DNA of 64,000 nucleotides from Candidatus Micrarchaeota archaeon. GTDB taxonomy: Archaea > B1Sed10-29 > WALL01 > WAMD01. Positions 7,327 through 29,459 of this stretch are shown here, one piece after another. The notes below the pieces were generated by a model. The model was given only the letters and a program-made list of their open reading frames with translations. It was not told the origin of the DNA and ran no database searches. The first letter of the stretch is position 1, and every line of letters begins with the position of its first letter. The translations under genes and the position numbers were made by a program. The stretch lies in contig CAZZDL010000001.1 in assembly GCA_964652335.1 (NCBI GenBank), positions 89,216-153,215 of the forward strand. Reading direction: 5' to 3'.

Positions 7327-9606
7327 ATGGAGAATTATGTATTCATGTGGGGTGAGGAGAATCACAACAATTACGACCTTACCCCTTTATTGCTAAATTA
7401 CGGGAGAAAAGCAATCAGCAAATTTGGGATTGGACTGAAAAATGCACTAGTTTTTAGCAGGAACTTTTATACAGAATTTTACATGCCAAAATCAGAGCTA
7501 AGAAGGGCTAAAAGATTAGGACTGGAGTTTTATCGTAAAAAATCCAACCTAAAAAAACTCATTAATGATTCAATGAGAGCCATGGAAAATGTTTACCATA
7601 GGGCAGAAACACTAGTTAACACAGATCTTAGGAGATTAACAGATGAAGAGTTTTTTGATGTATACATTTACTATGAGTCTACACTTGGTGAGATATTTAC
7701 TTGCTACTCAATAACGCAACCGCATTATCTTAAAGGATTTGAAGAGCTGTTATTTAAATTTCTTGATGGGAGAGTGGAGGACGTAAATGCCGCAGCAGCT
7801 TTACTAACAAAGCCGGATGTTAAATTTAGATTTGACAAATCAACAGACATATTCAAGTCCTTTGACGAAATTGTTAATAAGGAATCTGTTAAGATTGACA
7901 AATCTCTCATTGGCAAGAGAATATACACATTGGTTAAGACACGCAGTAAGGAAAGAGATAAATTAATTTCAAAATTGAATCCCCCCAAAAAGATTTTACA
8001 CGTGATAGATGTCTTGAAGGAAGTAGCAAGAATAAGGATGGAGATGAGGATATCTTGGATGATTGGACTGTATTATAGGGAGTTGTTGTTTAATGAGATA
8101 AAAAGGAGGAGAAAGATTAGCAGGAGAGAGCTTAGGGCTTATGACAGTGATGAGCTTGATGAGTTGGTGAGAATAGGGAAGAAATTGCCAAAGAAAAAGT
8201 TAGAGAAGAGAAAAATTGGATTTTTGAAATTAATGGAAAACGGAGAGATATTTACGTTTGAAGGAAAGAAAGCAGAGAAGATGTTTAATGAACTCATAGG
8301 AAAACTTGAAGACAAAAAAACATTGGCAGGTATTGTTGCATCGCCTGGATACACAGTTGGTAGGGCAATAATACTTAGCTATAAAAAATCAAGGGAGCAT
8401 TCGTCAAAGATTCAAAAGATGGAGGAAGGGCAGATCATAGTAACAGAAATGACTAGGCCAAATATTGTAGAAGCATGTGAGAAGGCGGGTGCAATAGTTA
8501 CAGATGAAGGTGGGATAACGTCACATGCAGCAATAGTTTCTAGAGAATTAGGTATCCCATGCATAGTTGGAACATCCATTGCCACCAAGGTCATAAAAGA
8601 TGGAGACTACCTTGAAGTAGATGCAAACAGAGGTATCGTAAGGAAATTGTCCAAAGATGAATATGAACAAAAATTGTCCCACCTTGAAAAAAGAAAGCGC
8701 AAGGGGGAAATGAAAGCAAAGGTAAAACTAGCCAAATTGAAGAAAGGATATGTGTTTTGGTTTAGTGAAATAGGAAAAGAGGATGTTTTGACAGTGGGAG
8801 GTAAGGGAGCGAACCTTGGAGAGTTGTATAAATTCGTGGATGTACCAGATGGTTTTTGTGTGTCAACTAATGCATACAAAGAGTTCATAGAGATGCATGG
8901 AATAGACAAGAAGATAAAAGACTTATTGACAGGAATCAGTTTGGATGATCCACATAAAATTGAATTAGTATCCTCAAAGATAAGAAAAATTATACTAAGT
9001 TATGAAATGCCCCAAAGAATAGAGAAGGCAATTCTTGATTATTATAGAGAGTTGAAGGCTGAAAAGGTTTCAGTTAGATCCTCAGCCACGGCAGAGGATA
9101 TGCCTGGGGCTAGTTTCGCTGGTCAGCAGGATACATACTTGAATGTTTCTGGAGAGAGGCGCGTTATTGATTCAGTTAAAAAGTGTTGGGCAAGTCTGTT
9201 TACTCCCAGAGCCATATTTTATAGGGAGAAAAATGGCATAAATCATTTAGATGTTTTGATAGGCGTAGTTATTCAAAGGATGGTTGATGCCAGATATGCG
9301 GGGGTTATGTTTACCAAGGATCCAATACATAAAAAATACATTCTAATAGAGGTTGTCCAAGGCCTTGGGGAGAAACTGGTTTCTGGTAAGGTGACTCCAA
9401 ACTCTTATTTAGTTAGTATAGAAGGTAAGGATAGGATAATATCAAAGAAGGAGAAATTTAGGTTCAAGAGGGAGCTCTTATTTGAAATTGCTCAAATAGG
9501 AAAAAGGATAGAGAGGCATTATAACTTCCCTCAAGATATAGAATGGGCTATAGATAAAAATGAGAAGATATACATACTACAATCAAGACCCATAACCACA
9601 TTGTGA
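7327..9606 (+). CDS. PEP-utilizing enzyme family phosphotransferase with permuted domain order (unknown N-domain, then phosphohistidine swivel domain, then PPDK_N ATP-grasp domain); no PEP-binding TIM barrel
   Basis: [22 protein letters not shown] (His domain) lies upstream of [33 protein letters not shown] and [22 protein letters not shown] (ATP-grasp). Confidence 0.7.
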   Translation: [759 protein letters not shown]

Positions 9607-10386: not shown

Positions 10387-13023
10387 ATGAAATGGATATA
10401 CTTTTTTGAAGAGGGAAGTAAGGACCTGAAATTCTTGCTAGGTGGAAAAGGAGCAAATTTAGCTGAAATGAAGAATTTGGGCTTACCAGTTCCAGAAGGA
10501 TTTACCATAGTAACCAAGGCTTGCCTGGAGTATATACGAACAGGAGACTGGCCAAAGAATGTGAAATCCCAATTATACAAATCCATGAAAAAATTAGAGA
10601 AAAAAACTAAGAAGAAGTTTGGAGATCCAGAGAGACCATTATTGGTTTCTGTTAGATCTGGAGCGCCTGTCTCAATGCCTGGGATGATGGATACAATTCT
10701 TAATTTGGGTCTGAACGATGAAGTGGTTGGTGGACTAGCCAAATTAACAAATAATCCAAGGTTCGCGTATGATGCGTACAGGCGGTTAATACAGATGTTC
10801 GGAAATGTTGTTTTGGATATACCTCACGAGGAGTTTGAGGAAACGCTTGCAAAATACAAGAAGAAGATAGGAGTGAAGTATGATTATGAGCTTGATGTTG
10901 ATACATTAAAGGCATTGATAAAAGAGTACAAGAAGATAGTAAAGGAGTTCCATAAACCAGGATTCCCTCAAGACCCATGGAAACAGCTGGAGATGGCAGT
11001 GGAGGCAGTATGGAGATCATGGAATAATCCAAGGGCAATAGTCTACAGAAAAGCGAACAACATACCAGATGACATGGGGACAGCTGTTAACATTGTTGAA
11101 ATGGTATTCGGTAACATGGGGGAGGATAGTGGAACAGGCGTCTTGTTCACGAGAAACCCATCCACAGGTGAGAAGAAGATATATGGAGAGTTTTTGATAA
11201 ATGCGCAGGGTGAGGATGTAGTTGCAGGTATAAGGACACCACAGGACATAAGTCAGTTGGAAAAGGTCATGCCGAAGATAGCAAGGCAGTTGAAGAAAGT
11301 AGCTAAACTTCTGGAAAAGCATTACAGGGATATGCAAGACATAGAGTTTACGGTTGAAAAGGGTAAGCTGTACATACTGCAAACAAGAACAGGAAAGAGA
11401 ACCCCGCAAGCAGCGATAAGGATAGCTGTTGACATGGTGAAGGAGAAGCTAATAACAAAGAAAGAAGCCGTCATGAGAGTGGATCCAGAAGGATTGACAA
11501 AACTCTTGCACCCAAGGATTGACTATTCCTCTAATCCAAAGATAATTGCAAAAGGACTTCCAGCATCCCCAGGAGCAGCAGTCGGTAAGGTTGTTTTTGA
11601 TTCAAATGAGGCGAAGGAACTTGGCGATGCAGGTGAAAGGGTAATCTTAGTTAGACCAGAGACAACACCAGATGATGTTCATGGAATTATAGCTTCAAAA
11701 GGCATTCTTACATCTAGAGGTGGAATGACATCACACGCGGCTGTTGTAGCTAGAGGAATGGGCAAGCCTGCAGTGGTTGGATGTGACGATATAATCATAG
11801 ACTTGGAGAATGAGAGATTTGTTGTTGGGGAGTATCTAGTCAAGAAGGGAGATATTATAACAATAGATGGGGCTACAGGTAATGTTATATTAGGAGAGGC
11901 AAAGGTCTTGCCTCCTGGAGTTTCAAAGGAAATGGACCAGCTGCTCAAATGGGCAGATGGGTTCAAGAGGCTAAAGGTAAAGGCGAATGCAGACTTGCCT
12001 GGAGATGCTAAAACTGCCAGGGAATTCGGAGCTGAAGGGATTGGGCTTTGTAGAACAGAACACATGTTCCTTGGTCCAGATAGATTACCGATAGTCCAAG
12101 AGATGATTTTGGCGACGTCAGATACAGAGAAGAGAAATGCGTTAAGGAAATTGCTTAGAAGGCAAGTGAAGGACTTTGTTAAATTGCTAGAAGTCATGGA
12201 TGGTTTACCTGTTACAATTAGACTTTTAGACCCACCTTTGCATGAATTCCTACCAGATATAACAGACCTAGAAGTAAAACTGGTGGAACTAAAGCTAAGT
12301 CATGGTGATCCAGAGGAGATAAGAAAGCTAGAAGAACTTACAGCAAAGGTTAAGCAATTGAGAGAAGCGAATCCAATGCTTGGTCATAGAGGATGTAGGC
12401 TTGGAATAACGATGCCTGAGTTGTATAGGATGCAGGTTAGAGCAATAGCAAAAGCCACGGCTGAGCTAAAGAAGAAAGGGAAAGATCCGAGGCCAGAGAT
12501 AGAAATCCCGCTTGTAGCATTTGCAGAAGAGGTTGATTATCTAAAGAAAGAGATCCTTGATGAGCTTGACAAGGTTTCAAATGAAGAGGGAATCAGATTA
12601 AAGATAAAAGTAGGGACAATGATTGAGCTACCTAGAGCCGCCATAATTGCTGGAAAGCTTGGAGAAAGAATTGACTTTATGAGCTTTGGGACAAATGACT
12701 TAACACAAACAACTCTTGGGTTCTCTAGAGATGACGCAGGAAAGTTTATTCCTGAGTACATTGAAAAGGGGATATTGAAGTTTGATCCATTCCAGGTCAT
12801 AGACACTGAAGGGGTTGGATTCTTGATGAAGCATTGTCTAGAGAATGCGAAGAAGGCGAATCCAAAAATAGAAATAGGTATATGTGGTGAACAGGGAGGA
12901 GAACCAAAGAGCGTTGATTTTTGCCATAGAATTGGTTTGGACTATGTCTCTTGTTCACCATTTAGGATTCCAGTTGCCAGGCTAGCTGCAGCCCAGGCAG
13001 CCATAAGAGAGGAGAAGAAGTGA
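10387..13023 (+). CDS. ppdK: pyruvate, phosphate dikinase
   Basis: 878 aa; N-terminus MKWIYFFEEG...GGKGANLAEM; swivel His GGMTSHAAVVARGMGKPAVVG; C-terminal PEP-binding barrel with CGEQGGEP. Confidence 0.9.
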   Translation: MKWIYFFEEGSKDLKFLLGGKGANLAEMKNLGLPVPEGFTIVTKACLEYIRTGDWPKNVKSQLYKSMKKLEKKTKKKFGDPERPLLVSVRSGAPVSMPGMMDTILNLGLNDEVVGGLAKLTNNPRFAYDAYRRLIQMFGNVVLDIPHEEFEETLAKYKKKIGVKYDYELDVDTLKALIKEYKKIVKEFHKPGFPQDPWKQLEMAVEAVWRSWNNPRAIVYRKANNIPDDMGTAVNIVEMVFGNMGEDSGTGVLFTRNPSTGEKKIYGEFLINAQGEDVVAGIRTPQDISQLEKVMPKIARQLKKVAKLLEKHYRDMQDIEFTVEKGKLYILQTRTGKRTPQAAIRIAVDMVKEKLITKKEAVMRVDPEGLTKLLHPRIDYSSNPKIIAKGLPASPGAAVGKVVFDSNEAKELGDAGERVILVRPETTPDDVHGIIASKGILTSRGGMTSHAAVVARGMGKPAVVGCDDIIIDLENERFVVGEYLVKKGDIITIDGATGNVILGEAKVLPPGVSKEMDQLLKWADGFKRLKVKANADLPGDAKTAREFGAEGIGLCRTEHMFLGPDRLPIVQEMILATSDTEKRNALRKLLRRQVKDFVKLLEVMDGLPVTIRLLDPPLHEFLPDITDLEVKLVELKLSHGDPEEIRKLEELTAKVKQLREANPMLGHRGCRLGITMPELYRMQVRAIAKATAELKKKGKDPRPEIEIPLVAFAEEVDYLKKEILDELDKVSNEEGIRLKIKVGTMIELPRAAIIAGKLGERIDFMSFGTNDLTQTTLGFSRDDAGKFIPEYIEKGILKFDPFQVIDTEGVGFLMKHCLENAKKANPKIEIGICGEQGGEPKSVDFCHRIGLDYVSCSPFRIPVARLAAAQAAIREEKK

Positions 13024-13024
13024 C

Positions 13025-15373
13025 TCACTCACTACCAGAGCTAATTAACGTCACTCTAGTCGGCTCGTTTGCAGATTTATCTCTTTCAAACCGATAGAGA
13101 GTCCCAGAGACAGCCCTTTCCATTTCATCGTCGTGCGTAATTATAAATATCTGTTCTACTAGACCTGGAAGGTGGTCCTTTAGAGTTAATGCAAGAGTTT
13201 TCACACCCTCTTTATCAAGATTATGTGTGGGTTCGTCTAGTATTAACCAGCTCAGTTTTTGAGTTAGTACCAACGCAAAGGCCACCCTCAAGGCCAAAGC
13301 AGCAGAACTTCTTTCCCCACCAGATGCTATTCCCTCAACATTGACCCATTCCCCATCATTCCTTTGCAGTTCCAGCACATAGTCCTTTTCAGCCACGTTT
13401 AACCTAAGAGATTGATAATCCTCATATGGGTATATTCTTGGCCATATGTCTGCCAAAGCAGCATTCACAGTATCTACGAATTCCTCTCTAAGTTTTAGCT
13501 GACTTGTCTCAAGCGCTGTGGCCAGGATAGCTAGGGATTTTGATATATCCTCAAATATTTTTATCTCTTCCTCCAATTTCCTTCTCCATTCTAGCTTGTC
13601 CTCTAACTCTTTGATTAACCTCTCCTTTTCCCTCACTATTTCAAATTTCCCGGCTAGTTTTGCCTTGATAGAGGAGAGATCTGAGTTTAGTTTTATGTAT
13701 TTTTCCTTTACCCTTTCGTATTCGGATTCATCAAATTTTATTTTATCCAAGTTCTCTTTTAGCTTTGATATCTCAGAATTTATCTTCTCTATTTTTTCCA
13801 GAGTGTTTTTCAGCTCTGTTTTCATTTCGTCTATTTTTCTCAGCTCATTTACCTTCTCGGTAAGCAGCTTTACCTGATCCATCTTAGTCTTTTTCTCCTC
13901 TCTGAGCTTGTTTATTTTATCCTCAATTTCCTTGACTTCATTTGCCAATTGCTCTTCATTCTCAATCTTTATCTCTCTAATCTCTTTTTCAATGTTCTCA
14001 ACGCCTTTCTCAGCCACAAGAATGTCTCTTATGATCCTCTCAATATCCATCTTTTTCCTTTTTCCTTCGTTTATCTTTTCCCTTACTAATTTGATTTCAC
14101 CTTTTGCTTTCTTAATTCCATCTTTGGCATCCATTAATAATTTCACCCTTTTTTCATTAGGTAGATCGGATTCACAAACAGGACATACTCCTTCAGCCTT
14201 TGAAAGAGATCGCTCCCTGTCCTCAAGTTTGTTTATCAATCCGATGAGGTTTGTCAATCTGTCATTCAACTCTTCTAATTCTTTATCTGCCTTTTCAAGT
14301 TCTTTATTCCATTTCTCTTTCTCTTTAATCTTTTCTTTGAGAGAAATAAGTCTTTTTTCCAGCTCTTCCTTCCTCTTTTTTGAGCTTCTTGTTTTCTCCA
14401 ATTTTGTGGCGAGGTCTAGTTTAATATTGGATAACTCGTTGATGCTGTTGTCTATTTCTTTTATGTTGTTCTCAATATCCTGAAGAGATGCCTCTGCTTT
14501 CTCAAGCTCTGGAGCTATATCTATTTCAATATATTTACCTAGCTTTGTTACCATATTTGATTTCCTAGCGTTTAGCAACTCCAATTCTCCGCTCATTTTT
14601 TCAATTTTCCTCAAGTTTTCTTCCCTAGCAATTCTTTTCTTTTCAAGTTCATCTTTTTCCCTCCTAGTTTTGTCTAGTTCTGTTTCAATCGATTTTACTT
14701 CTACCTCTAGGCTGGCTATCTCCTTTTTAGTATTTTCTATTTCAGATTTGATCTTTTCTATGTTAGATCTTATTTCCTCTATCCTCATACCTTCAATCTC
14801 TTTCTTTCTGTCTTTGATTCTATCCTTCACCCGGTTTAGTGCAGAGACTAAGTTTTTCCTAGCGTCTTCAAATTTGTCTATCCCAAGCAGTTCATCTATT
14901 TTCTGTTTTCTTTTACCGGCAGGAATTTGAAGGAAGTAGTCTATCTGGTTCTGTTCGGAGTATATTGCTTTAGAGAATAAGTCGTAGTTCATTCCTATTA
15001 TCTTTGTAACACTTTCATTTACTCTGGAGATTATGGCCTCTTTTAACTTTCCTTCCTCAAACAGTTCTGCCTTGCTAGTCCCTTTTCCCCTTGTTATCTC
15101 TCTTATTATCCTATACTCTTTCCCATCCACTTCTAGATCTAGCTCTATTCTAGCTTTGTTCTTCACCTCAGGCTTATTCATTATGTAATCCTCAAGTTTC
15201 ACCTTCCTTGACTGAACGTTTGGAAATGTCCCAAATAAAGCAAAACATATAGCATCCATAACTGAAGATTTACCAGAGCCCATTCTCCCAACTAGGACAT
15301 TAGTCCCTTTAGAAAAGACCAGTTCTGATCTTTGGTGGGATCTCCAGTTCTCTAATAGGATTCGCTTAATCAT
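13025..15373 (-). CDS. rad50: Rad50-family DNA double-strand-break repair ATPase (solo; no adjacent mre11)
   Basis: Walker A GRMGSGKSS, central zinc hook CPVC, long K/E-rich coiled coils, signature SGGERS, Walker B LILDEPTHNLD. Confidence 0.8.
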   Translation of the reverse strand: MIKRILLENWRSHQRSELVFSKGTNVLVGRMGSGKSSVMDAICFALFGTFPNVQSRKVKLEDYIMNKPEVKNKARIELDLEVDGKEYRIIREITRGKGTSKAELFEEGKLKEAIISRVNESVTKIIGMNYDLFSKAIYSEQNQIDYFLQIPAGKRKQKIDELLGIDKFEDARKNLVSALNRVKDRIKDRKKEIEGMRIEEIRSNIEKIKSEIENTKKEIASLEVEVKSIETELDKTRREKDELEKKRIAREENLRKIEKMSGELELLNARKSNMVTKLGKYIEIDIAPELEKAEASLQDIENNIKEIDNSINELSNIKLDLATKLEKTRSSKKRKEELEKRLISLKEKIKEKEKWNKELEKADKELEELNDRLTNLIGLINKLEDRERSLSKAEGVCPVCESDLPNEKRVKLLMDAKDGIKKAKGEIKLVREKINEGKRKKMDIERIIRDILVAEKGVENIEKEIREIKIENEEQLANEVKEIEDKINKLREEKKTKMDQVKLLTEKVNELRKIDEMKTELKNTLEKIEKINSEISKLKENLDKIKFDESEYERVKEKYIKLNSDLSSIKAKLAGKFEIVREKERLIKELEDKLEWRRKLEEEIKIFEDISKSLAILATALETSQLKLREEFVDTVNAALADIWPRIYPYEDYQSLRLNVAEKDYVLELQRNDGEWVNVEGIASGGERSSAALALRVAFALVLTQKLSWLILDEPTHNLDKEGVKTLALTLKDHLPGLVEQIFIITHDDEMERAVSGTLYRFERDKSANEPTRVTLISSGSE

Positions 15374-15464
15374 TGCCTAATTTTTTGTTTGTTTGTGTTA
15401 TAATTATTTCCGGTTATGGTTATAAACAGGAAGAATCATTAAACTAAAGGACAAAGGTGGTTAT

Positions 15465-17924
15465 ATGAAGAGAAAGCTCAAAAAAGATGATAATAAGGGA
15501 ATATCCCCCATTGTTTCCGTCGTCCTGTTGATTGCTATTGCAGTCATAGCCGCGGTTAGCATTTATTTCTGGTCCGCAGGCCTAGTCACAAAGCAACCGA
15601 CGCCTGAGGGCCCAATCCCAATAACTGCTGTTCCTTTGGACAATCAAGGCCATGTGGCTGTTGCAAACCTTGGTAACAAGCCATTGACACTTAGCAAGTT
15701 AAACTCTACTGCGGGTGTTGAGTGTGACTTTGGTGGGACCGTCACAATCCAGCCTGGAGGGCAGGCTATTTGTACTATTCCTCCAAAGTCTGGGAAGATT
15801 GTTTTGTGGGGTTCTGGGACAGGTTCAACAGAGATAGAGCTTTCTGGTGTTGCAGAGGTAACTGTTACGAGCTCGCCTGGGTTTTCCACTTCATCCGTTA
15901 CTCAGGCAACTGAAGAGGACTTTGAAGAGGGAGCGTTCACAAATACAAGCACAGGATCAGACGAAGTCACATTAAAGGAACAATCCGTGGTGAGCATCGC
16001 CGACGTAACAGATTCAGGCTTTTTTGGAGGAGGGAGTGACAGTCATTTACCAAACGCAGGTTATCCTGGAGGTCTAGCTGTAGGAGACATAAACGACGAT
16101 GGGAAAAAAGACATTATTATCTCCTCCCCAGGATCATATTCAAACGATGGTAGGGTTTACATATTCTTTGACATAGAGAATACTCAATGGGATCATGGCA
16201 TAGGTTATGCTAACATTACAATATATGGAGCCACTGATGGAGTTATTACTGGTCCGAGTGGGGTCTTGGGAGACATAAACAATGATGGGAAGGATGATCT
16301 GATTATAGGAGAACTTTGTGATACTTCATCTTGTGACGGTAAGGTTTTCATAGTGTATGGTCCATTATCTCCTGGTAGTTACAATATAAAGTATATAGCT
16401 AATGCAACGATATCTGGAGGACAATATTCCAACCTTGGTTACGGAATATTCGTTTATGATATAAACAAGGATGGAAAGATGGATTTCATGGTCGGCGCAT
16501 CTAATGAATCAGGAGGGAACGGTAGTTATTATTTAGTATATGGGAACAGCTATTCAGGCAACTATAACATCACAGATGTTTACTCAGCTAAGATAACAGG
16601 GAATCAATCCAGTGAGCATGTGGGGTATGGACCAGTAGCATTTGGAGATGCAAACGGAGATGGAAAAGTAGATATTTTGATAGGTTCTCCTTATTACGAT
16701 GTAGAAACAGGTTTAGCGTATGATAATCCATATGATGGTAGGGCTGTATTGTTCTATGGGCCCATCTCTGGTAACCTCAGCATGAGCTCAGGGAATGTTA
16801 CTATCTATGGTAGAAGGATGTATGATTACCTTGGTTGGGACGTTGCTCTGTATGATATAAACAAAGACGGCAAAGACGATCTTATTATCTCTTCTCCAGG
16901 GTATGATCTATATGGTCCAGCTGCTGGCACTTGGAAGGATAGAGGTGCTGTTGCAGTCTTTTTCTCTCCAGCATCTTCAGGAACGTTCCAGTTCAATGAT
17001 ACACTGGATGCACATGGCAAATGTACATTTTCTACGAATGCGGATATGGCATTCACCTTTGACAACTCCACAGATCAGAAATTTGGAAGTGCAATAGGAA
17101 TAGGTGACTTCAAAGGAAATGGAGATATTGATATTGTTATAGGAGCAAAGGATATCAATAGAGCTTTTGTATATTATGACATTGAACCCACTAATGAAAT
17201 ATATGCTCAGGCTTATGGTATCGAAAGATATTGCTCAGGAGCCGATGTTACTCTTACGATTCCGTGGGATACAAGCGCATCTCTTGGAAGTTCCATATTG
17301 ACTAAGGACGTTAACAGTGATAACAAATACGACCTATTAATTGGATCTCCTGGTTACCATGGTGATGAGGGAAGAGTGGATATTCTATCAGGCAGTTTTC
17401 CATTTACACTGGCAAGCGATCATGGGAAATATTACTCAAAGGTCTTTGACTTAAATCATCTCTCTAATCTGACATATGTCACATGGACGTCAGATGAGCC
17501 AACTGGAACAGACCTAACTATAGAGCTGAGAATAGGGAATGCATCTGACGTAGATAACTCCTCAGGGTATGACATCTTGAACGTAGCTGGAACGAACGTT
17601 TCTAAGGGAAGTATCTCGTTGGGACCTGGAACCAAAGCTCAATACATAGCTTACTTCAATACAAGCGATACATCAAAGACACCAGTCCTCTACGACATAC
17701 AGCTTACCTACAAACCGCTCTACACAAATGTAACCTATACAATAAACTACGCCTCTGGCTTAAAATGGGTTGCACTAAACAGGAGCGATGGGACATTGGT
17801 AGCCAATGAAACAGTGAGCAATTGCGATACATTCTACACGAATACTAAGGAGGTTTCCACAGCGTATAGTTATACAGTTATATACAAGGGATGCGATGGT
17901 CAGACAAAGACATATGCGGTTTAA
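15465..17924 (+). CDS. large secreted FG-GAP (integrin-alpha-like beta-propeller) repeat protein with an N-terminal archaeal class III (pilin-type) signal peptide
   Basis: N-terminus MKRKLKKDDNKG then ISPIVSVVLLIAIAVIAAV; repeated DINNDGKDDLIIG, GDANGDGKVDILIGSP and DINKDGKDDLIISSPGY motifs. Confidence 0.7.
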   Translation: MKRKLKKDDNKGISPIVSVVLLIAIAVIAAVSIYFWSAGLVTKQPTPEGPIPITAVPLDNQGHVAVANLGNKPLTLSKLNSTAGVECDFGGTVTIQPGGQAICTIPPKSGKIVLWGSGTGSTEIELSGVAEVTVTSSPGFSTSSVTQATEEDFEEGAFTNTSTGSDEVTLKEQSVVSIADVTDSGFFGGGSDSHLPNAGYPGGLAVGDINDDGKKDIIISSPGSYSNDGRVYIFFDIENTQWDHGIGYANITIYGATDGVITGPSGVLGDINNDGKDDLIIGELCDTSSCDGKVFIVYGPLSPGSYNIKYIANATISGGQYSNLGYGIFVYDINKDGKMDFMVGASNESGGNGSYYLVYGNSYSGNYNITDVYSAKITGNQSSEHVGYGPVAFGDANGDGKVDILIGSPYYDVETGLAYDNPYDGRAVLFYGPISGNLSMSSGNVTIYGRRMYDYLGWDVALYDINKDGKDDLIISSPGYDLYGPAAGTWKDRGAVAVFFSPASSGTFQFNDTLDAHGKCTFSTNADMAFTFDNSTDQKFGSAIGIGDFKGNGDIDIVIGAKDINRAFVYYDIEPTNEIYAQAYGIERYCSGADVTLTIPWDTSASLGSSILTKDVNSDNKYDLLIGSPGYHGDEGRVDILSGSFPFTLASDHGKYYSKVFDLNHLSNLTYVTWTSDEPTGTDLTIELRIGNASDVDNSSGYDILNVAGTNVSKGSISLGPGTKAQYIAYFNTSDTSKTPVLYDIQLTYKPLYTNVTYTINYASGLKWVALNRSDGTLVANETVSNCDTFYTNTKEVSTAYSYTVIYKGCDGQTKTYAV

Positions 17925-24749: not shown

Positions 24750-26280
24750 TGATTACTCCTATCTCAACAAGTTTTTCTACAGCCGCTTTCACTAGAACTT
24801 TACTGTAACCTAATGTAACACTTGCATTATCTACATTCATTACTCCACCCCTGGATTTTATGTACTCAAATACGTCCATTAGTAGCGGATCCTCCGTTGA
24901 GAAATCAGGTCTCGTTATGTGGTATGTGCCGTCTACCACTAGTCTCTTGGTTGGCTTCTCTGCCATCAGTCTAGCTATTAAATTAGATTTATATGTTATT
25001 CCAAAGAAGCCGATTATAGTTAGCAGGACTACCACCACTATTAGCCAAATTACATTGATACAGAACTTCCCTATACATACTATTCCAACTTTTACCGCAC
25101 TTTCAAACGCGCAGTTTCCTATTTCATCTTTACAAAAGTAAGGATCTGGTTCCTTGTATATAACGTCGTATTCTGTCTTTAAGTTGAATGGGTCGTATTC
25201 CCTTGTTAACTCCCCAAGATTCGTTTCAACCCAAGCATAGTAGTTTCCCCCTCTTTGTTTCCCTATAATCAGCCTGGCAGGAATACCTACCCTCCTTGCA
25301 GATTCTCTAAATATCAATGCCTTTTCCAAACTGTCATATGACGATTTATTGCTCATCACTAGCCAGTCTACATTCGTTGTCAATGGGAAATCTGGACTGC
25401 CTGATGGCAAGTCGTTCACGTAGTCTACAATTGTTGCGTATATCTCGGAGGAGCCAGATGTTAGGTCTATGCTCGGTACGAATGTTGAGGAGGCGTATTT
25501 GTTTTCTTCATTTAGTAATGGATCTTTCTCAGATAGTAGGAACACTTCCTTGTCAACAACTGATTTCACAGGAAATGCATTGAGTATTGTTGATTCTGCA
25601 AAGTACGCTCCCAAGTAATGAAACTCTAGAGTATAGGTGGATTTGGCAGGAATCTTAACTGCCCATATGAACACTTTAGATGGTTGCATAGTAACATTCA
25701 CATCTGGGAGAGGATAACTTGGAGGGTACGGTTCAAAGTATATTATTAACATGTTTCCATACAATCCCCTATCTGTTGGAGACAAATATGCAAAATGTTT
25801 TGATTGATCCTTTGCAAATGGTGCGTACATTGAATAGGGATTGTTTTCATCAGTGATCTTTACCTCAACTATAACGTCTGTTTCCTTTGTATTTTCTAAT
25901 TTTATCTCCTGTATAACATCCTTGTCAGTTATAGTCACTTGAACGTTTGCATAGACATCCTCTGCAAAGGCTTCAGGATACGTTACCTTGAAGTTACTTA
26001 TGTCTGATCCAACCACAGGCTTGTCAAATCTCGGTTCAGGCATCTCTATCTCAGAGTTTAATACTCTCATGTATGGAAACGGGAATATTGGCATTAGATT
26101 GTTTACTAGCATTCTGTTCTCTGATGGGTTTATCTTTACTAAATGTTTGTCAGACGAAAAAAGCATGAAATTGTTTTCGTCTTCTCCAACGAAGGTTAGA
26201 GCAAATACAAATTGCGACGCTAGTAATAAACCAGTAATGATGACTAGTATGTTAAAGCAATTTTTCATGCACAATTTCAT
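24739..26280 (-). CDS. secreted, membrane-anchored protein with a large extracytoplasmic domain, one TM and a C-terminal cytoplasmic winged-helix-like domain
   Basis: signal peptide MKLCMKNCFNILVIITGLLLASQFVFA; TM VIWLIVVVVLLTIIGFFGI; C-terminal LLMDVFEYIKSRGG...SVTLGYSKVLVKAAVEKLVEIGVI resembles a wHTH. Confidence 0.5.
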   Translation of the reverse strand: MKLCMKNCFNILVIITGLLLASQFVFALTFVGEDENNFMLFSSDKHLVKINPSENRMLVNNLMPIFPFPYMRVLNSEIEMPEPRFDKPVVGSDISNFKVTYPEAFAEDVYANVQVTITDKDVIQEIKLENTKETDVIVEVKITDENNPYSMYAPFAKDQSKHFAYLSPTDRGLYGNMLIIYFEPYPPSYPLPDVNVTMQPSKVFIWAVKIPAKSTYTLEFHYLGAYFAESTILNAFPVKSVVDKEVFLLSEKDPLLNEENKYASSTFVPSIDLTSGSSEIYATIVDYVNDLPSGSPDFPLTTNVDWLVMSNKSSYDSLEKALIFRESARRVGIPARLIIGKQRGGNYYAWVETNLGELTREYDPFNLKTEYDVIYKEPDPYFCKDEIGNCAFESAVKVGIVCIGKFCINVIWLIVVVVLLTIIGFFGITYKSNLIARLMAEKPTKRLVVDGTYHITRPDFSTEDPLLMDVFEYIKSRGGVMNVDNASVTLGYSKVLVKAAVEKLVEIGVITKT

Positions 26281-26779
26281 AAACTGGTCCCTCCCTCGTT
26301 AGTTTGCTCTTCATCAGCAAGATCTTATCAATTTTAAATTCTCTCTCAATCTTTTTTCCGATCATGCTTGATAATGCACTATTCGGCCTTTCCTTTACTC
26401 TTGCAAGTGTTATGTGTGGCACGTAGTTCTTATCTCTTTGGAATCCGATTTCAGCCAACTCTGCATCTATAAAATCATGTATACTTAAAATGCTTTCTGA
26501 TTCTACACCCAGCCATATCACTCTTACATAGTTTTTGTTTGGAAAGGCTCCTACACTAGTAGTATGGCATTCAAACGGTCTTTCATCAACTAGTTCAAGA
26601 ATATTTACCAATTTGTCAATCCTACTCTCTGGGACTTCTCCCAGGAATTTTAATGTTATGTGCAGGTTCTCCCTCTCAACCAATTTCATTTTTACCCCAG
26701 TTTTCTTTAGCTCCTCCTGGAGAGAAAGACATTCTTTTATGATATCATCGGTTATTGGGAACCCGAGAAACAGTCTCAC
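26252..26779 (-). CDS. thpR: RNA 2',3'-cyclic phosphodiesterase / 2'-5' RNA ligase (2H phosphoesterase)
   Basis: two H-x-T-x motifs, HITLKF and HITLARV. Confidence 0.75.
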   Translation of the reverse strand: MRLFLGFPITDDIIKECLSLQEELKKTGVKMKLVERENLHITLKFLGEVPESRIDKLVNILELVDERPFECHTTSVGAFPNKNYVRVIWLGVESESILSIHDFIDAELAEIGFQRDKNYVPHITLARVKERPNSALSSMIGKKIEREFKIDKILLMKSKLTREGPVYEIVHEKLL

Positions 26780-27441
26780 GATAACCGCCTCTCGTAGGTC
26801 TTTGTCCTAACCCATACATTGTCCTTTAGCCCTGCTAAGAATTCCTCGTCCCATTCACCATCTATATTTAGTTTTGGATCCATGCAGTTGCCCTTCTCAA
26901 ATGGCACGATGACCCATTTTCCAGGAATGGATTTACTCATTTTAGCTAGATCCTCTCTATCCAGCTGGGGATGCCATACCGTTACTACTTCCCAATATCC
27001 ATTCCAGCCGGTCAACGCCTTCAACGACTCTATTACTCCATCCCCACTCGATCTAGTTATCTCTTCATATTTTTCAAATGGTCCTTTTACGTCCAGTCTT
27101 ACAAAGTCAACAAGCTTTCTATTGATTATTTTTTTCAACATTTCTGGATTTTCACCATTTGTCTCTATCATAATCTTTAGTCCGAGAAGCTTAAGATTTC
27201 TCAGAAATATTGGAAGATCCTTTTGTTCTGTTGGCTCCCCACCAGTTACACATATGGCTTGCATGACTCTTGACGCTTTTATCTTTTCCACAGCTTCCCT
27301 TCCACTCATACCATTTCTAGCTTTTACTATCTCAGGGACGAAGCAGTATCCACATTTCCATTTACATCCACACGTATAAACCTTTCCAAATATCATACCA
27401 TTCCAATTGAAACTTTGCAGATCTAACCTGCACACCTGCAT
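26776..27441 (-). CDS. radical SAM protein of the NrdG/PflA-activase or QueE family
   Basis: CKWKCGYC (Cx3Cx2C) cluster and a VTGGEPT SAM motif; 221 aa; 4-nt overlaps with both neighbouring genes. Confidence 0.7.
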   Translation of the reverse strand: MQVCRLDLQSFNWNGMIFGKVYTCGCKWKCGYCFVPEIVKARNGMSGREAVEKIKASRVMQAICVTGGEPTEQKDLPIFLRNLKLLGLKIMIETNGENPEMLKKIINRKLVDFVRLDVKGPFEKYEEITRSSGDGVIESLKALTGWNGYWEVVTVWHPQLDREDLAKMSKSIPGKWVIVPFEKGNCMDPKLNIDGEWDEEFLAGLKDNVWVRTKTYERRLS

Positions 27442-27445
27442 AGAA

Positions 27446-29458
27446 TCACTTTCCTAGTATGAACACAGACGGAGCGTCTTCCAATATATCATAAATCATT
27501 TTGAGTTTTGGATCTTTCCCTTTCTGCTTTGCATACTTTTCCAAACTAACAGAAAACCAGTTACCACCCAGGCTGGACTTCTGCAGGTCTCTTTCTGCCT
27601 TCATCCAACCAATTAACTCTGTGCTTTCATTTATGTATGTGTTATAGTAAACATCTTTGACGCCAAAGTTTCTGTAGTTAAGATCCATGAATCTTTTTCT
27701 CACTTTTTCTGTTTCTATGTTTGCTAACTCTATGTAGACACCATCATTTTCCTGGAAGGATGTAAGTTTATTCCTAACAAAGGACACCACTTTTTCTGCG
27801 AATAGGAATGCATCTTCATCTTTTACAATGCTTTTACCTTTAAACTCCTGTATGGACGAGTCTAGGCCAACCAGATTGACTAGGGAAGGGGCGAGGTCAA
27901 GTTGGAAATATACTTCATCGTTTGAAGAATTTGTCAAGAAAGGCAATATTCTGTTTTCAAACATTCTTCTTTCTATAATCTTCCTTTTAATTACTGCGAT
28001 TTCCTTTGCATAATTCAATGCCTTTTCCAGCATTGAGAAGAATTGCGTTTCATCCTTAGCTTTCAATCCTATGTAGGGCATATTCACTGAGATCTCTTGG
28101 AGGACACCAGTCCTTAGAGTTTCAAACCACTTCCCCTTTCTACCCAACAACATATGATTTGGTGCTATTATCCCAGCGTTTTCCTTTATGATATCTGACC
28201 TTGCGTTTACTATCATAACTTTATTCTCCTTTAGGAATTCCTCTAGCTTGTTCATCGTGGAGTTTGGTATAGGTCCATCCCTGATCTTTATCACTATCCT
28301 TGGTGTCTTGAACGGTTTTTTAAGGAAATCTCCTTCACTCATGACATCAAGGAAAGAATTTAGGATCCTTACCGCTTCTCTCTCATAGTCTAGATAAGTA
28401 TCTGTGGAAGTCACTCCACCAGGGAGTATAGCCTTTTCTTTCTTTATGAAGGATGGAGCTTCAAGCTCAAAGTTCAAACTAGCTAGTGCTAGTCCACCCT
28501 TCACTCCTAGAAGTTGGTTCAGCTGATATAAAAAGCCTTGAACCAGCTGGCTTAGTTGGTTGTTATTCAAATGCATGGTATATGGGGCCAAGAACAGATT
28601 GAAGAAATCAAATCCTTGTCCTCCAGATATATGAGTGGACGCAGATATTAGTATTCTTATTATATGCGAGAACGCAGTATCTGCATGCTTTGGTGGGCCG
28701 GCCACAGTGATGTTTTCATCAATGAATAATCCATTCCTTAAGAACCATCTAATATCATTTTGCAAGGATGTAATCCTTGTCCCAAAGTAGGGTATATCAT
28801 GTATATGTATAAACCCTGAAAGATGAGCCTTTGCTATTTCCTCTGGCAACAGCTTTGTCAATGCATATTCGCTTGTGACACTGTCTCCGAATATCTTGTG
28901 TATCGTTTCTGGGTTTTTTGGAGTCACAGGAGGATTTTCTATTATATTATGCACATCGTACAACGGTAGCCCAAGCCTTGAGTACTCAAGTCTTGCTCTT
29001 GTATACTTCCTTTCCAGCAGTTTTGAATTGACCATGTCTCTTATGAGGGGAGCTGATATATACCTGAGCTCTAGCCTTCTGATATCTGATTCAACTTCGT
29101 TCGCTATCTCTTCGCATACCTTTTGAGTAAGTGTGGTTTCCTTTAGCAGACTAGAAACAATCTTTTCTTTGTCAAATGGTTCCAGTTCGCCGTTAGAGGT
29201 TCTAACGTATATTCTGTGATAGTTTTCGTACGCCCTAGCAGCGTTTTCATCCTTTTTTCTCAGCTCTTCAATTATTAGGTCATCAATCTCATCCTCTGTC
29301 ATTCCAGGTTTTACCCTATCTTTTATCCGCATTATTACCTCTGTAGCATCCCAGAAGGGGATTCCAGCCTTTCTACACTTCTCCTGGATGACCCTCGGGT
29401 TAAAATTCGAACCATTCATCACTGTATGTTTTAAATTTCGAAATATATAATTTAGCAT
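27446..29458 (-). CDS. ATP-cone domain protein with a class III ribonucleotide reductase (NrdD)-like body, lacking all cysteines and the glycyl-radical motif
   Basis: ATP cone YVRTSNGELEPFDKEKIVSSLLKE; NrdD-like AHLSGFIHIHDIPYF; no Cys after residue ~115 and no RVxGY at the C-terminus. Confidence 0.55.
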   Translation of the reverse strand: MLNYIFRNLKHTVMNGSNFNPRVIQEKCRKAGIPFWDATEVIMRIKDRVKPGMTEDEIDDLIIEELRKKDENAARAYENYHRIYVRTSNGELEPFDKEKIVSSLLKETTLTQKVCEEIANEVESDIRRLELRYISAPLIRDMVNSKLLERKYTRARLEYSRLGLPLYDVHNIIENPPVTPKNPETIHKIFGDSVTSEYALTKLLPEEIAKAHLSGFIHIHDIPYFGTRITSLQNDIRWFLRNGLFIDENITVAGPPKHADTAFSHIIRILISASTHISGGQGFDFFNLFLAPYTMHLNNNQLSQLVQGFLYQLNQLLGVKGGLALASLNFELEAPSFIKKEKAILPGGVTSTDTYLDYEREAVRILNSFLDVMSEGDFLKKPFKTPRIVIKIRDGPIPNSTMNKLEEFLKENKVMIVNARSDIIKENAGIIAPNHMLLGRKGKWFETLRTGVLQEISVNMPYIGLKAKDETQFFSMLEKALNYAKEIAVIKRKIIERRMFENRILPFLTNSSNDEVYFQLDLAPSLVNLVGLDSSIQEFKGKSIVKDEDAFLFAEKVVSFVRNKLTSFQENDGVYIELANIETEKVRKRFMDLNYRNFGVKDVYYNTYINESTELIGWMKAERDLQKSSLGGNWFSVSLEKYAKQKGKDPKLKMIYDILEDAPSVFILGK

Positions 29459-29459
29459 T

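Follow-up and report, generated by a model that had tools for sequence, protein, structure and literature searches.

The protein encoded at 27446-29419 on the reverse strand of the window (the whole 64,000-nt stretch of archaeal DNA analysed here), which we call psiNrdD, is a pseudoenzyme, a paralog of the catalytic subunit of class III ribonucleotide reductase (RNR; NrdD) that has lost its catalytic residues and is kept by selection (Table 1). A first-pass annotation, made from the sequence alone, had described a 670-aa open reading frame with an ATP-cone and an NrdD-like stretch. The frame at 27446-29458(-) does encode 670 aa, and YVRTSNGELEPFDKEKIV, IHIHD and SGGQGFDFFN were each found in its product. 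The true start is almost certainly M14 at position 29419; the resulting 657-aa form equals the database protein P0001 at 100% identity, and the first 39 nt of the longer frame are occupied by the TATA-rich divergent promoter. Profile searches related the body of the protein to NrdD (PF13597, NRDD, 220 bits, profile positions 5-479 of 562; Pfam ATP-cone PF03477, 63 bits), and the NrdD equivalog TIGR02487 was matched with 210.1 bits, under its cut-off of 326.35.

Table 1. Features of the psiNrdD locus (positions in the window; residue numbers of the 657-aa protein)
Feature	Position	Strand	Evidence or remark
ThpR/LigT 2H phosphoesterase, 175 aa	26252..26779	-	TIGR02258; overlaps radical SAM gene by 4 nt
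NrdG-like radical SAM protein, 221 aa	26776..27441	-	PF04055 63 bits; TIGR02495; 4-nt gap after psiNrdD
psiNrdD, class III RNR paralog, 657 aa	27446..29419	-	Pfam NRDD, ATP-cone, AF2 model, P0001 identity
Finger-loop tip APNH, aa 419-422, at place of QCCR/MCCR thiyl-radical motif	28154..28165	-	alignments
S218, at place of beta-A ('bottom') Cys	28766..28768	-	alignments
HIHD, aa 205-208, retained HxHD motif	28796..28807	-	H205/H207/D208 invariant
ATP-cone, aa 71-160, with clade-specific invariant C102	28940..29209	-	PF03477 63 bits
N-terminal four-helix domain, aa 1-70, degenerate ATP-cone remnant, with invariant C15	29210..29419	-	Pfam and model
Divergent promoter region psiNrdD-AsnC/Lrp, 40 bp	29420..29459	.	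two TATA-like boxes flanking TTCGAA
AsnC/Lrp-family regulator, 141 aa	29460..29885	+	Pfam HTH_AsnC-type and AsnC_trans_reg

The protein consists of a degenerate ATP-cone remnant, an ATP-cone and an NrdD alpha/beta barrel, and its C-terminus lies directly past the last barrel strand; no DNA-binding domain was found in it by Pfam profile search. The remnant scored 25.5 bits against the Pfam ATP-cone (cut-off 25.8), over profile positions 34-84 of 88 only, and has four helices in the predicted model (residues 8-17, 22-33, 42-56 and 58-68). The N-terminal hairpin of the ATP-cone proper is a 'VRTS' variant common to psiNrdD and its canonical archaeal relatives. The only cysteines are at ORF positions 28 and 115 (C15, invariant in 24 sequences, and C102 of the 657-aa form), and the barrel has none, as the first reading of the sequence had it. 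In the AF2 model (pLDDT 91.4) the NrdD fold is kept, and the 36 best PDB matches of this model were all class III RNRs (NrdD), with TM-scores of 0.57-0.72. The archaeal double-cysteine NrdDs (Archaeoglobus-like, P0027-P0033) share this fold and the order of ATP-cone, linker and 10-stranded barrel; they are 38% identical to psiNrdD overall and about 50% in the N-terminal third (aa ~70-315: ATP-cone, HxHD and specificity-site hairpin), but psiNrdD differs from them in a series of catalytic elements.

Alignment to bona fide NrdD placed these differences. The beta-A cysteine (Cys79 of the T4 enzyme) is replaced by S218, invariant in the clade (RPYCFQH of NrdD reads RITSLQN in psiNrdD), and the finger-loop motif MGCR/MCCR, whose thiyl-radical cysteine is T4 Cys290, aligns with A419-P420-N421-H422, so that the Cys-Cys pair has become A419/P420 (P420 is invariant, N421 nearly so). 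The substrate-site elements of NrdD are the HxHD motif, which binds the substrate triphosphate, the NxN flap and a phosphate-binding loop (PMC11226230); psiNrdD keeps HxHD, the NxN flap is deleted (IENPPVTPKNPE), the loop TPAES is replaced, and the YTN motif is also gone. [quoted passage not shown] A frameshift hiding such a C-terminus was also considered: no Gly-radical or Zn-ribbon sequence was found in any of the three gene-strand frames, read through the stop codon and beyond it, the stand-alone glycyl-radical ORFs of relatives matched nothing in the window as tblastn queries, and all of the roughly 25 full-length orthologues (P0001-P0026, minus one truncated and one shorter entry) share the same end point. 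Having lost its radical and redox cysteines (the bottom one and both of the finger loop) along with the substrate flap, phosphate loop, zinc ribbon and glycyl-radical domain, psiNrdD cannot reduce nucleotides and can neither make nor use a thiyl radical, which upholds the earlier statement that it is not a functional class III RNR.

With every catalytic residue lost, and with gene loss ongoing in DPANN genomes, psiNrdD might be taken for a functionless relic of a decaying nrdD, a reading that we regard as hardly credible. Far from decaying, the gene is under strong purifying selection, and its conservation across Iainarchaeota (DPANN archaea) equals that of a catalytic NrdD or of an aminoacyl-tRNA synthetase. 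More than 25 lineages have an uninterrupted ORF (48-100% identity), omega between the loci L007 and L012 is 0.097 (0.096 for catalytic NrdD), 117 positions are invariant, and amino acid identity between the window and L091 is 83% for psiNrdD compared with 83% for AspRS, 76% for ELP3, 63% for the radical SAM protein and 46% for ThpR. The functionless relic is contradicted by these selection data (omega, intact ORFs), and psiNrdD counts as a pseudoenzyme because its catalytic residues are lost while selection maintains the gene.

Conservation is highest in the ATP-cone, with further peaks at the HxHD motif and in the region of the specificity-site hairpin. Residues conserved in canonical NrdD are retained at 78% (50/64) in aa 61-240 versus 19% (13/67) in aa 451-657, and clade-invariant positions make up 34% of the ATP-cone versus 7% of aa 451-657 (the distal barrel). 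About 25 barrel positions, including the finger-loop tip, reach 90% conservation or more within the clade yet depart from the canonical consensus. Clade-specific conservation of P420, N421 and other barrel residues would also suit a newly acquired ligand or catalytic site. It is quite improbable, in our estimate, that the barrel has been re-tooled as a non-radical NTP enzyme or binder through HxHD together with P420, N421, R255, H263, E320 and N581; the clade-wide invariance of HxHD and the off-consensus conserved positions would fit such an activity, but of the triphosphate site the TPAES half is gone, as is the NxN flap, conservation is lowest in the distal barrel, HxHD itself is lost in most other dead-NrdD lineages, and profile and structure searches gave no likeness to other enzyme families.

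The first-pass annotation had correctly placed a Cx3Cx2C radical SAM gene 4 nt after psiNrdD and an overlapping thpR behind it. In the radical SAM protein the CX3CX2C motif is intact as CKWKCGYC (27343-27366) and GGEP is present as TGGEPT; its best family by far is NrdG2 (TIGR02495, 121.4 bits, under the cut-off of 131.15), with PflA second at 41 bits. ThpR scored 152.2 bits against TIGR02258, above the cut-off of 65.7; its two HxTx motifs both read HITL (aa 40 and 122). No NrdD with a glycyl-radical domain lies beside the radical SAM gene at the window's locus; its syntenic orthologues trail such an RNR in L048 and L017. In related Iainarchaeota, psiNrdD and the radical SAM gene of the same syntenic block are separated by a catalytic class III RNR, namely an NrdD in L017 and in the MAG Zod_Metabat.1420 (L014 and L048), and an NrdD with its own NrdG in L007 and L012 (in L048 and L017 the NrdD is split, and a stand-alone glycyl-radical ORF and a glutaredoxin, Grx, accompany it). 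Relatives hold a catalytic NrdD at this place and the window's lineage does not, so that psiNrdD and the radical SAM gene stand side by side as a relic, a deletion scar. Judged by synteny, the radical SAM gene belongs as activase to a catalytic split class III RNR that is missing at the locus in this lineage. The gene is intact through a subclade of only 50-63% identity in which no catalytic NrdD is nearby, so it still has a job. In L007, L012 and L008 the orthologue is devoid of CX3CX2C and GGE, in L094/L095 it is absent and ThpR directly follows psiNrdD, and it is also absent from the rearranged loci L002, L003 and L015, where psiNrdD is conserved. The cysteine-less orthologue of L007/L012 is under purifying selection (omega 0.165).

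It had been proposed that psiNrdD, the radical SAM protein and ThpR could act jointly on nucleotides or RNA, or in a new radical chemistry. In such a chemistry the radical SAM enzyme might directly attack a substrate bound in the dead barrel. The four genes are tightly packed (a 4-nt gap, and overlaps of 4 and 29 nt) and so probably co-transcribed, the radical SAM cofactor motifs are all kept over the divergence given above though catalytic NrdD is not nearby, and even the cysteine-less orthologue is still selected. We nevertheless consider such a module very unlikely, because the radical SAM orthologue trails a catalytic NrdD in L017 and L048, psiNrdD is conserved where the Fe-S ligands or the whole radical SAM gene are lost, and the glycyl-radical domain that NrdG recognises is missing from psiNrdD. 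ThpR evolves fast relative to psiNrdD (identities above) and is a mere syntenic neighbour, belonging to an extended, conserved run of housekeeping genes that starts with ELP3 and ends with the CCA enzyme. PADLOC matched no system. The dead RNR is confirmed, and its reading as a nucleotide-sensing pseudoenzyme is the one that our analysis favours; the three-gene module and the new radical chemistry are not supported.

The most constant neighbour of psiNrdD is the AsnC/Lrp gene, which flanks it in divergent orientation in all Iainarchaeal loci examined; the product in the window is 85% identical to the L091 orthologue. In relatives the promoter shared by the two genes has a palindrome, GGTTCG-N5-CGAACC, at the place equivalent to the promoter region of the window. 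The adjacency of the AsnC/Lrp gene and psiNrdD could be simple synteny, because the entire block from ELP3 to the CCA enzyme is conserved. Five lineages have a catalytic RNR no more than 6 kb from psiNrdD (including a class II NrdJ in L015), a dCMP deaminase gene is found within the gap in L016 and L007, and catalytic NrdD is absent from the window and from nine other loci of 16-22 kb.

Such neighbours might point to a non-catalytic partner that heterodimerises with or scaffolds a catalytic RNR and lends it allosteric sites or stability, as the dead Rnr4 does for Rnr2 in the class I RNR of yeast. NrdD works as a dimer with the specificity site at the interface (PMC11226230), the corresponding region is among the best conserved of psiNrdD, and a catalytic NrdD adjoins psiNrdD in L017, L014/L048, L007 and L012. 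A partner role is unlikely, however: the nearby RNRs are of three unrelated types (that of L048, closest to bacterial NrdDs; that of L007b; and the class II NrdJ of L015), which makes a single conserved partner surface improbable, the catalytic NrdDs align to psiNrdD from about residue 70, suggesting ATP-cones of their own (P0121 has a Pfam ATP-cone), and a catalytic NrdD is missing from the window and the nine other loci named above.

From the conserved parts of the protein and its gene context, we infer with moderate confidence that psiNrdD is an RNR-derived pseudoenzyme that senses nucleotide pools, with its output on deoxynucleotide metabolism. It would bind ATP or dATP through the cone and probably also dNTPs, in what was the specificity site, on a dimer interface. 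The status of the nucleotide pool may then be translated into control of deoxynucleotide metabolism, exerted by contacts with other proteins or jointly with the neighbouring AsnC/Lrp regulator.

Dead NrdDs are not confined to the clade of the window, as at least 60 clusters (50% identity) are devoid of both the thiyl cysteine and the glycine. In Bathyarchaeia, a protein with a winged helix (wHTH), an ATP-cone and a dead NrdD is encoded immediately upstream of a catalytic NrdD in all five loci examined, with a glutaredoxin gene between the two in L092 and L093 (the two loci with called genes); the N-terminal domain is an ArsR-type wHTH/DUF7347 in P0061 and P0067. In some Bathyarchaeial relatives SRITGY is replaced by FSRVSAKH, which puts Ala for Gly at the radical site; these relatives have lost the beta-A cysteine, and many also the finger-loop cysteine. 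Dead RNR homologues are known from class I, in which yeast Rnr4 and betaherpesvirus R1 homologues such as M45/UL45 lost catalytic or radical residues and were kept for a non-catalytic role (cofactor assembly partner; host cell-death inhibitor). psiNrdD differs from these in RNR class, domain of life and role, and literature searches returned neither a description of the dead-NrdD group nor a class III example of a catalytically dead RNR homologue. Alanyl, seryl and threonyl 'aminoacyl radical enzymes' are glycyl radical enzymes with the glycine replaced, from the PFL-like superfamily IPR004184, for which NrdD served as outgroup only (PMC11528403). The Gly-to-Ala replacement of the FSRVSAKH relatives resembles them, but psiNrdD of the window has no radical domain and the Bathyarchaeial relatives lack the beta-A cysteine.

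NrdR is described as a bacterial repressor of nrd operons composed of a Zn-ribbon and an ATP-cone (PMC9110341, PMC12176259). psiNrdD is like it in having an ATP-cone outside a working RNR and an RNR-linked context, and its Bathyarchaeial relatives, encoded ahead of an nrd operon, have a DNA-binding domain as well; psiNrdD is unlike NrdR, which is small, two-domain and free of an RNR barrel, in that it has no DNA-binding domain, its homology is limited to the cone and its regulatory role is a proposed one. The Bathyarchaeial proteins may do the same job as psiNrdD as one-component factors (winged helix, ATP-cone and dead NrdD) upstream of Grx-NrdD-NrdG operons. We tentatively suggest that dead NrdDs could be widespread archaeal nucleotide-pool sensors derived from RNR, acting in Bathyarchaeia as one-component factors on the nrd promoter and in Iainarchaeota in an HTH-less form, perhaps with AsnC/Lrp, and with the cysteine-less 'pseudo-activase' as a second dead partner in some lineages. 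If this is true, they would be a functional counterpart of bacterial NrdR made from a whole RNR scaffold.

The region is made up of four tightly packed minus-strand genes, among them psiNrdD (a catalytically dead paralog of NrdD, the class III ribonucleotide reductase (RNR)), an NrdG-like radical SAM gene (rSAM) and the gene of the 2H phosphoesterase ThpR (see the table). M14 is most likely the start of psiNrdD, and the 39 nt before it form a TATA-rich divergent promoter. In Pfam searches, the cone of psiNrdD matched ATP-cone (63 bits) and its body matched NRDD (220 bits, profile positions 5-479 of 562 only), whereas the curated NrdD equivalog model gave 210 bits against a cut-off of 326; the best family of the radical SAM protein was the NrdG2 activase (121 bits against a cut-off of 131). 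The two cysteines of psiNrdD, C15 and C102, both lie N-terminal to the barrel. The sequence description in the first-pass annotation was accurate, since its ORFs, domains, cysteines, missing C-terminal motifs and rSAM and thpR neighbours were all verified. The frameshift or sequencing error that it had named as a way of hiding a Gly/Cys-containing C-terminus was rejected: glycyl-radical and zinc-ribbon sequences are absent from the three forward (gene-strand) frames across and downstream of the psiNrdD stop, and all orthologues end alike. The locus is neither an artefact nor an ordinary RNR.

Features of the window and of the related loci, with coordinates
Feature	Position	Remarks
psiNrdD	window 27446-29458(-)	long ORF, 670 aa; 657 aa from M14 (29419); identical to database protein P0001
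C15; C102 of psiNrdD	window 29375-29377; 29114-29116	
Radical SAM protein	window 26776-27441(-)	4-nt gap after psiNrdD; CKWKCGYC and GGEP
ThpR, bona fide	window 26252-26779(-)	4-nt overlap with radical SAM gene; both HxTx motifs
Divergent AsnC/psiNrdD promoter	window 29420-29459	two TATA-like boxes, TTCGAA between
Intergenic regions compared with it	L007:3148-3219; L012; L002; L003; L014; L015	
PEP-utilising enzyme genes	window 7327-9606; 10387-13023	neighbouring
Stand-alone glycyl-radical ORFs	L048:2616-2882; L047:2738-3001; L017:14084-14236; L007:10245-10388; L012:15186-15329	
Cys-less rSAM orthologue	L007:11409-11978; L012:16317-16877; L008:10936-11451	CX3CX2C and GGE lost, 0-1 Cys left
dCMP deaminase	L016:10154-10636; L007:7530-8039	interval after dead NrdD, two lineages
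Class II (B12) RNR (NrdJ)	L015:17247-19340(-)	Iainarchaeum MAG, 5 kb from dead NrdD
NrdD-like protein and class II RNR	L037:9965-12028 and 14761-16944(-)	Altiarchaeota MAG; GRD-less, Cys-substituted (687 aa); 3 kb apart
Bathyarchaeial loci	L092:6001-10919; L093:6001-12315; L043:3001-7988; L029:2808-7119; L044:9863-13719	

A word-indexed search of 5.8 billion proteins placed psiNrdD in a clade of about 26 proteins that are 48-100% identical to the query, measure 646-674 aa (apart from two shorter members, of which one or both are truncated) and derive, where the source is named, from ‘Candidatus Diapherotrites’/Iainarchaeum MAGs; beyond this clade, identity drops to 38%, to canonical archaeal NrdDs. 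Sites were assigned by alignment to published NrdD descriptions. In the alignment with canonical archaeal NrdDs, a check that the first-pass annotation had suggested, both cysteine sites are lost (beta-A cysteine, RPYCFQH to R(P/I)(V/T)SLQN; finger-loop Cys-Cys, AQCCRL to (A/S)PN(H/Q)), the NxN substrate flap is deleted, and other sequences stand in for the TPAES phosphate loop and for the YTN motif. The protein ends exactly where the zinc ribbon and the glycyl-radical domain (GRD) would start. The HxHD triphosphate motif (for its role in NrdD, see PMC11226230) is kept, with H205, H207 and D208 invariant. An AlphaFold2 model built from 110 homologues (pLDDT 91.4, pTM 0.86) found class III RNRs throughout its 36 best PDB matches (TM-scores 0.57-0.72). 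By homology psiNrdD belongs to the NrdD superfamily, and by its cysteines, zinc ribbon, glycyl-radical domain and equivalog score it falls outside the functional class III RNRs. Its first 70 residues match the ATP-cone profile at positions 34-84 only (25.5 bits) and are the remnant of a second ATP-cone. Neither cysteine varies among the 24 clade sequences aligned. C102 occurs in this clade alone, canonical NrdD ATP-cones having alanine there, and the pair might serve, between the cone remnant and the cone, as a disulfide, a metal site or a redox switch. In the NrdDs P0034-P0039, which are canonical and closely related to the query in its N-terminal half (51% identity across the first third), inteins (LAGLIDADG/Hint Pfam domains) extend the protein to 1137-1172 aa.

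Because synonymous sites are saturated between the window and its nearest relative (L091), amino-acid identity relative to neighbour genes was used for this comparison, and omega was computed from the close pair L007/L012. In that pair, omega was 0.097 for psiNrdD compared to 0.096 for the catalytic NrdD of the same locus, values beside which a functionless relic appears extremely improbable. Between the window and L091, psiNrdD is 83% identical, as is AspRS, followed by ELP3 (76%), the CCA enzyme (68%), the radical SAM protein (63%) and ThpR (46%). Residues conserved in canonical NrdDs are retained at 50 of 64 positions (78%) in aa 61-240 (ATP-cone, linker, HxHD and specificity-site hairpin) compared to 13 of 67 (19%) in aa 451-657, and 34% of the ATP-cone positions are invariant within the clade compared to 7% in the distal barrel. 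Selection thus preserves psiNrdD and acts mainly on its allosteric half. Certain barrel residues show conservation peculiar to the clade (e.g., P420, N421, R255, H263, N581), and a re-tooled, non-radical active site is conceivable, if quite unlikely.

A full HMMER scan with the clade profile was run against 1.84 billion cluster representatives and gave 597 matches at E<=1e-30, and 91 full-length representatives (540-900 aa) from the best 150 of these were classified. Of the 91, 27 had neither finger-loop Cys nor RxxGY glycine nor zinc ribbon, and another 33 were without the Cys and the glycine but had the ribbon; 20 were canonical and 11 ambiguous. Where named, family members stem from MAGs of Thermoplasmata, ‘Euryarchaeota’, Altiarchaeota and Bathyarchaeia, and most are annotated as anaerobic ribonucleoside-triphosphate reductase (the dead NrdDs P0006, P0007, P0010, P0020, P0022, P0361, P0366 and P0380 carry the NCBI/JGI name “(anaerobic) ribonucleoside-triphosphate reductase”). 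The largest sister group is Bathyarchaeial and combines an ArsR-type winged helix/DUF7347, an ATP-cone, a dead NrdD and a zinc ribbon; alanine takes the place of its radical glycine (FSRVSAKH) or else the tail is truncated, E or Q occupies the beta-A Cys site, and HxHD is gone. In all five Bathyarchaeial loci examined, the gene of the winged-helix dead NrdD lies immediately upstream of a catalytic NrdD; in the two with called genes (L092 and L093) a glutaredoxin gene stands between them, and in L093 an rSAM gene follows the catalytic NrdD. These proteins resemble one-component regulators that sense nucleotides and act on the nrd operon. In a neighbour-joining tree each dead clade was monophyletic (100%), and the two were joined at only 74% support, which could reflect long-branch attraction. 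psiNrdD is a member of a sizeable RNR-derived pseudoenzyme family, and in the literature searched we met with no account of NrdD homologues that are Cys-less or GRD-less. A comprehensive RNR phylogeny groups class III enzymes according to the cysteine motifs in the finger loop (bioRxiv 10.1101/2022.04.23.489257), and the passages searched in it have no mention of a cysteine-free group.

The adjacency of psiNrdD, rSAM and thpR was compared across 17 related loci, which share one conserved block: ELP3, a ~260-aa ORF, (CYTH), a PF01877 protein, AsnC and the divergent psiNrdD, then a variable interval, rSAM, ThpR, a ~510-aa membrane protein, a T2SSE ATPase and the CCA enzyme. The psiNrdD-rSAM interval differs by lineage. 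In L017 and in MAG Zod_Metabat.1420 (L014 and L048) a catalytic NrdD (MCCRL finger loop), a small, separate ORF with the SRITGY glycyl-radical motif and a glutaredoxin-like gene are followed by rSAM, and L007 and L012 have another type of catalytic NrdD, accompanied by a glycyl-radical ORF and an NrdG of its own. The dCMP deaminase found in L016 (within the psiNrdD-ThpR gap) and L007 is a further deoxynucleotide-metabolism gene at the psiNrdD locus. In L094 and L095 rSAM is absent and ThpR follows psiNrdD directly. In the window and its closest relatives (L091, L004, L005 and L011) the interval is empty, so that psiNrdD abuts an intact rSAM; on the simplest reading of this gene order, the adjacency would be a residue of an interval from which the catalytic nrdD, glycyl-radical and grx genes have disappeared, by loss or relocation. 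ThpR simply comes next in the block. The interpretation in the first-pass annotation is partly supported: it was right about an RNR-derived pseudoenzyme, but the three-gene functional module that it proposed is best explained as a syntenic leftover, and a radical module of this kind is very unlikely. A defence system (viperin-like rSAM with a 2H phosphoesterase) was considered and rejected, as the radical SAM protein gave only weak, generic PADLOC matches to pVip and the remaining proteins gave none.

The catalytic class III RNR of the Iainarchaeota relatives comes in two pieces, a large subunit that stops at or just past the zinc-ribbon region and a stand-alone ORF of 47-88 aa with the SR(I/V)xGY glycyl-radical motif (33.8 bits to Pfam NRDD, positions 509-560). 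TAA, 12 nt and ATG lie between the two in L007, and an omega of 0.155 for the small ORF indicates purifying selection; no description of a split NrdD or of a stand-alone glycyl-radical subunit for it was found in the literature. The Cys-less rSAM orthologue of L007 and L012 (and likewise of L008) is an intact ORF of 171-189 aa whose omega of 0.165 is similar to that of the adjacent working NrdG (0.140); this ‘pseudo-activase’ is retained by selection, with a putative non-radical role. The window-type rSAM is intact despite 37-50% divergence within its subclade and so must still work, on a putative substrate outside the 64-kb window: no catalytic NrdD, glycyl-radical ORF or NrdJ was found within it. 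Pfam searches of 15 of the 19 ORFs of at least 420 aa (including all of at least 500 aa) revealed no second RNR in the window, and in a whole-window tblastn with the relatives' catalytic NrdD, glycyl-radical ORF, Grx and NrdJ, psiNrdD itself was the sole match. Among the homologues listed for the NrdD of L048 and the NrdJ of L015, none was matched to a contig that carries psiNrdD (matches at 62-69% identity from many phyla saturated the NrdJ list), and the locus of the closest canonical NrdD (P0027) has no activase. Class II RNRs near dead NrdDs (L015, L037) mean that dead NrdDs coexist with RNRs of different classes; that psiNrdD is a non-catalytic partner subunit of an RNR is unlikely. Elsewhere in the window, the second of two neighbouring PEP-utilising enzyme genes encodes a complete PPDK/PEP-synthase-like protein, and the product of the first has the unusual order of a mobile domain ahead of the PPDK_N nucleotide-binding domain, without the PEP-binding C-terminal domain.

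psiNrdD is an NrdD paralog that has lost catalysis but is maintained by selection, with conservation concentrated in its nucleotide-binding and allosteric parts, and its family recurs near deoxynucleotide-metabolism genes and is fused, in one lineage, to a DNA-binding domain before an nrd operon. We infer a function as sensor or regulator: ATP/dATP would be sensed at the cone and dNTPs possibly at the former specificity site, and the nucleotide state would be converted into a regulatory output. The only constant partner candidate in Iainarchaeota is the divergent AsnC/Lrp regulator, although general synteny could also account for this adjacency. The shared promoter measures 40-80 bp across lineages and carries two TATA-like boxes, and in several relatives a 17-bp palindrome (GGTTCG-N5-CGAACC), plausibly an Lrp-type operator, lies close to the start of AsnC. 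In function, the nearest analogues are NrdR, a repressor with an ATP-cone, and the dead homologues of class I RNR (Rnr4, herpesviral R1-like proteins), neither of them homologous in the relevant sense.

To our knowledge, all RNRs studied to date are enzymes; if the above is true, a large, conserved set of class III homologues that keep allostery and shed chemistry would be a natural experiment on the ATP-cone and specificity site alone. The split class III RNR with its stand-alone glycyl-radical subunit and the Cys-less activase relic under selection are testable by-products. Since dead NrdDs are annotated as reductases, metabolic reconstructions may credit archaea with dNTP synthesis that is absent, a problem that covers DPANN, Bathyarchaeia and other uncultured archaea. 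NrdR is, as far as we know, missing from most archaea, and we know of no described archaeal counterpart that regulates dNTP supply, which makes dead NrdDs candidate regulators of this supply in archaea.
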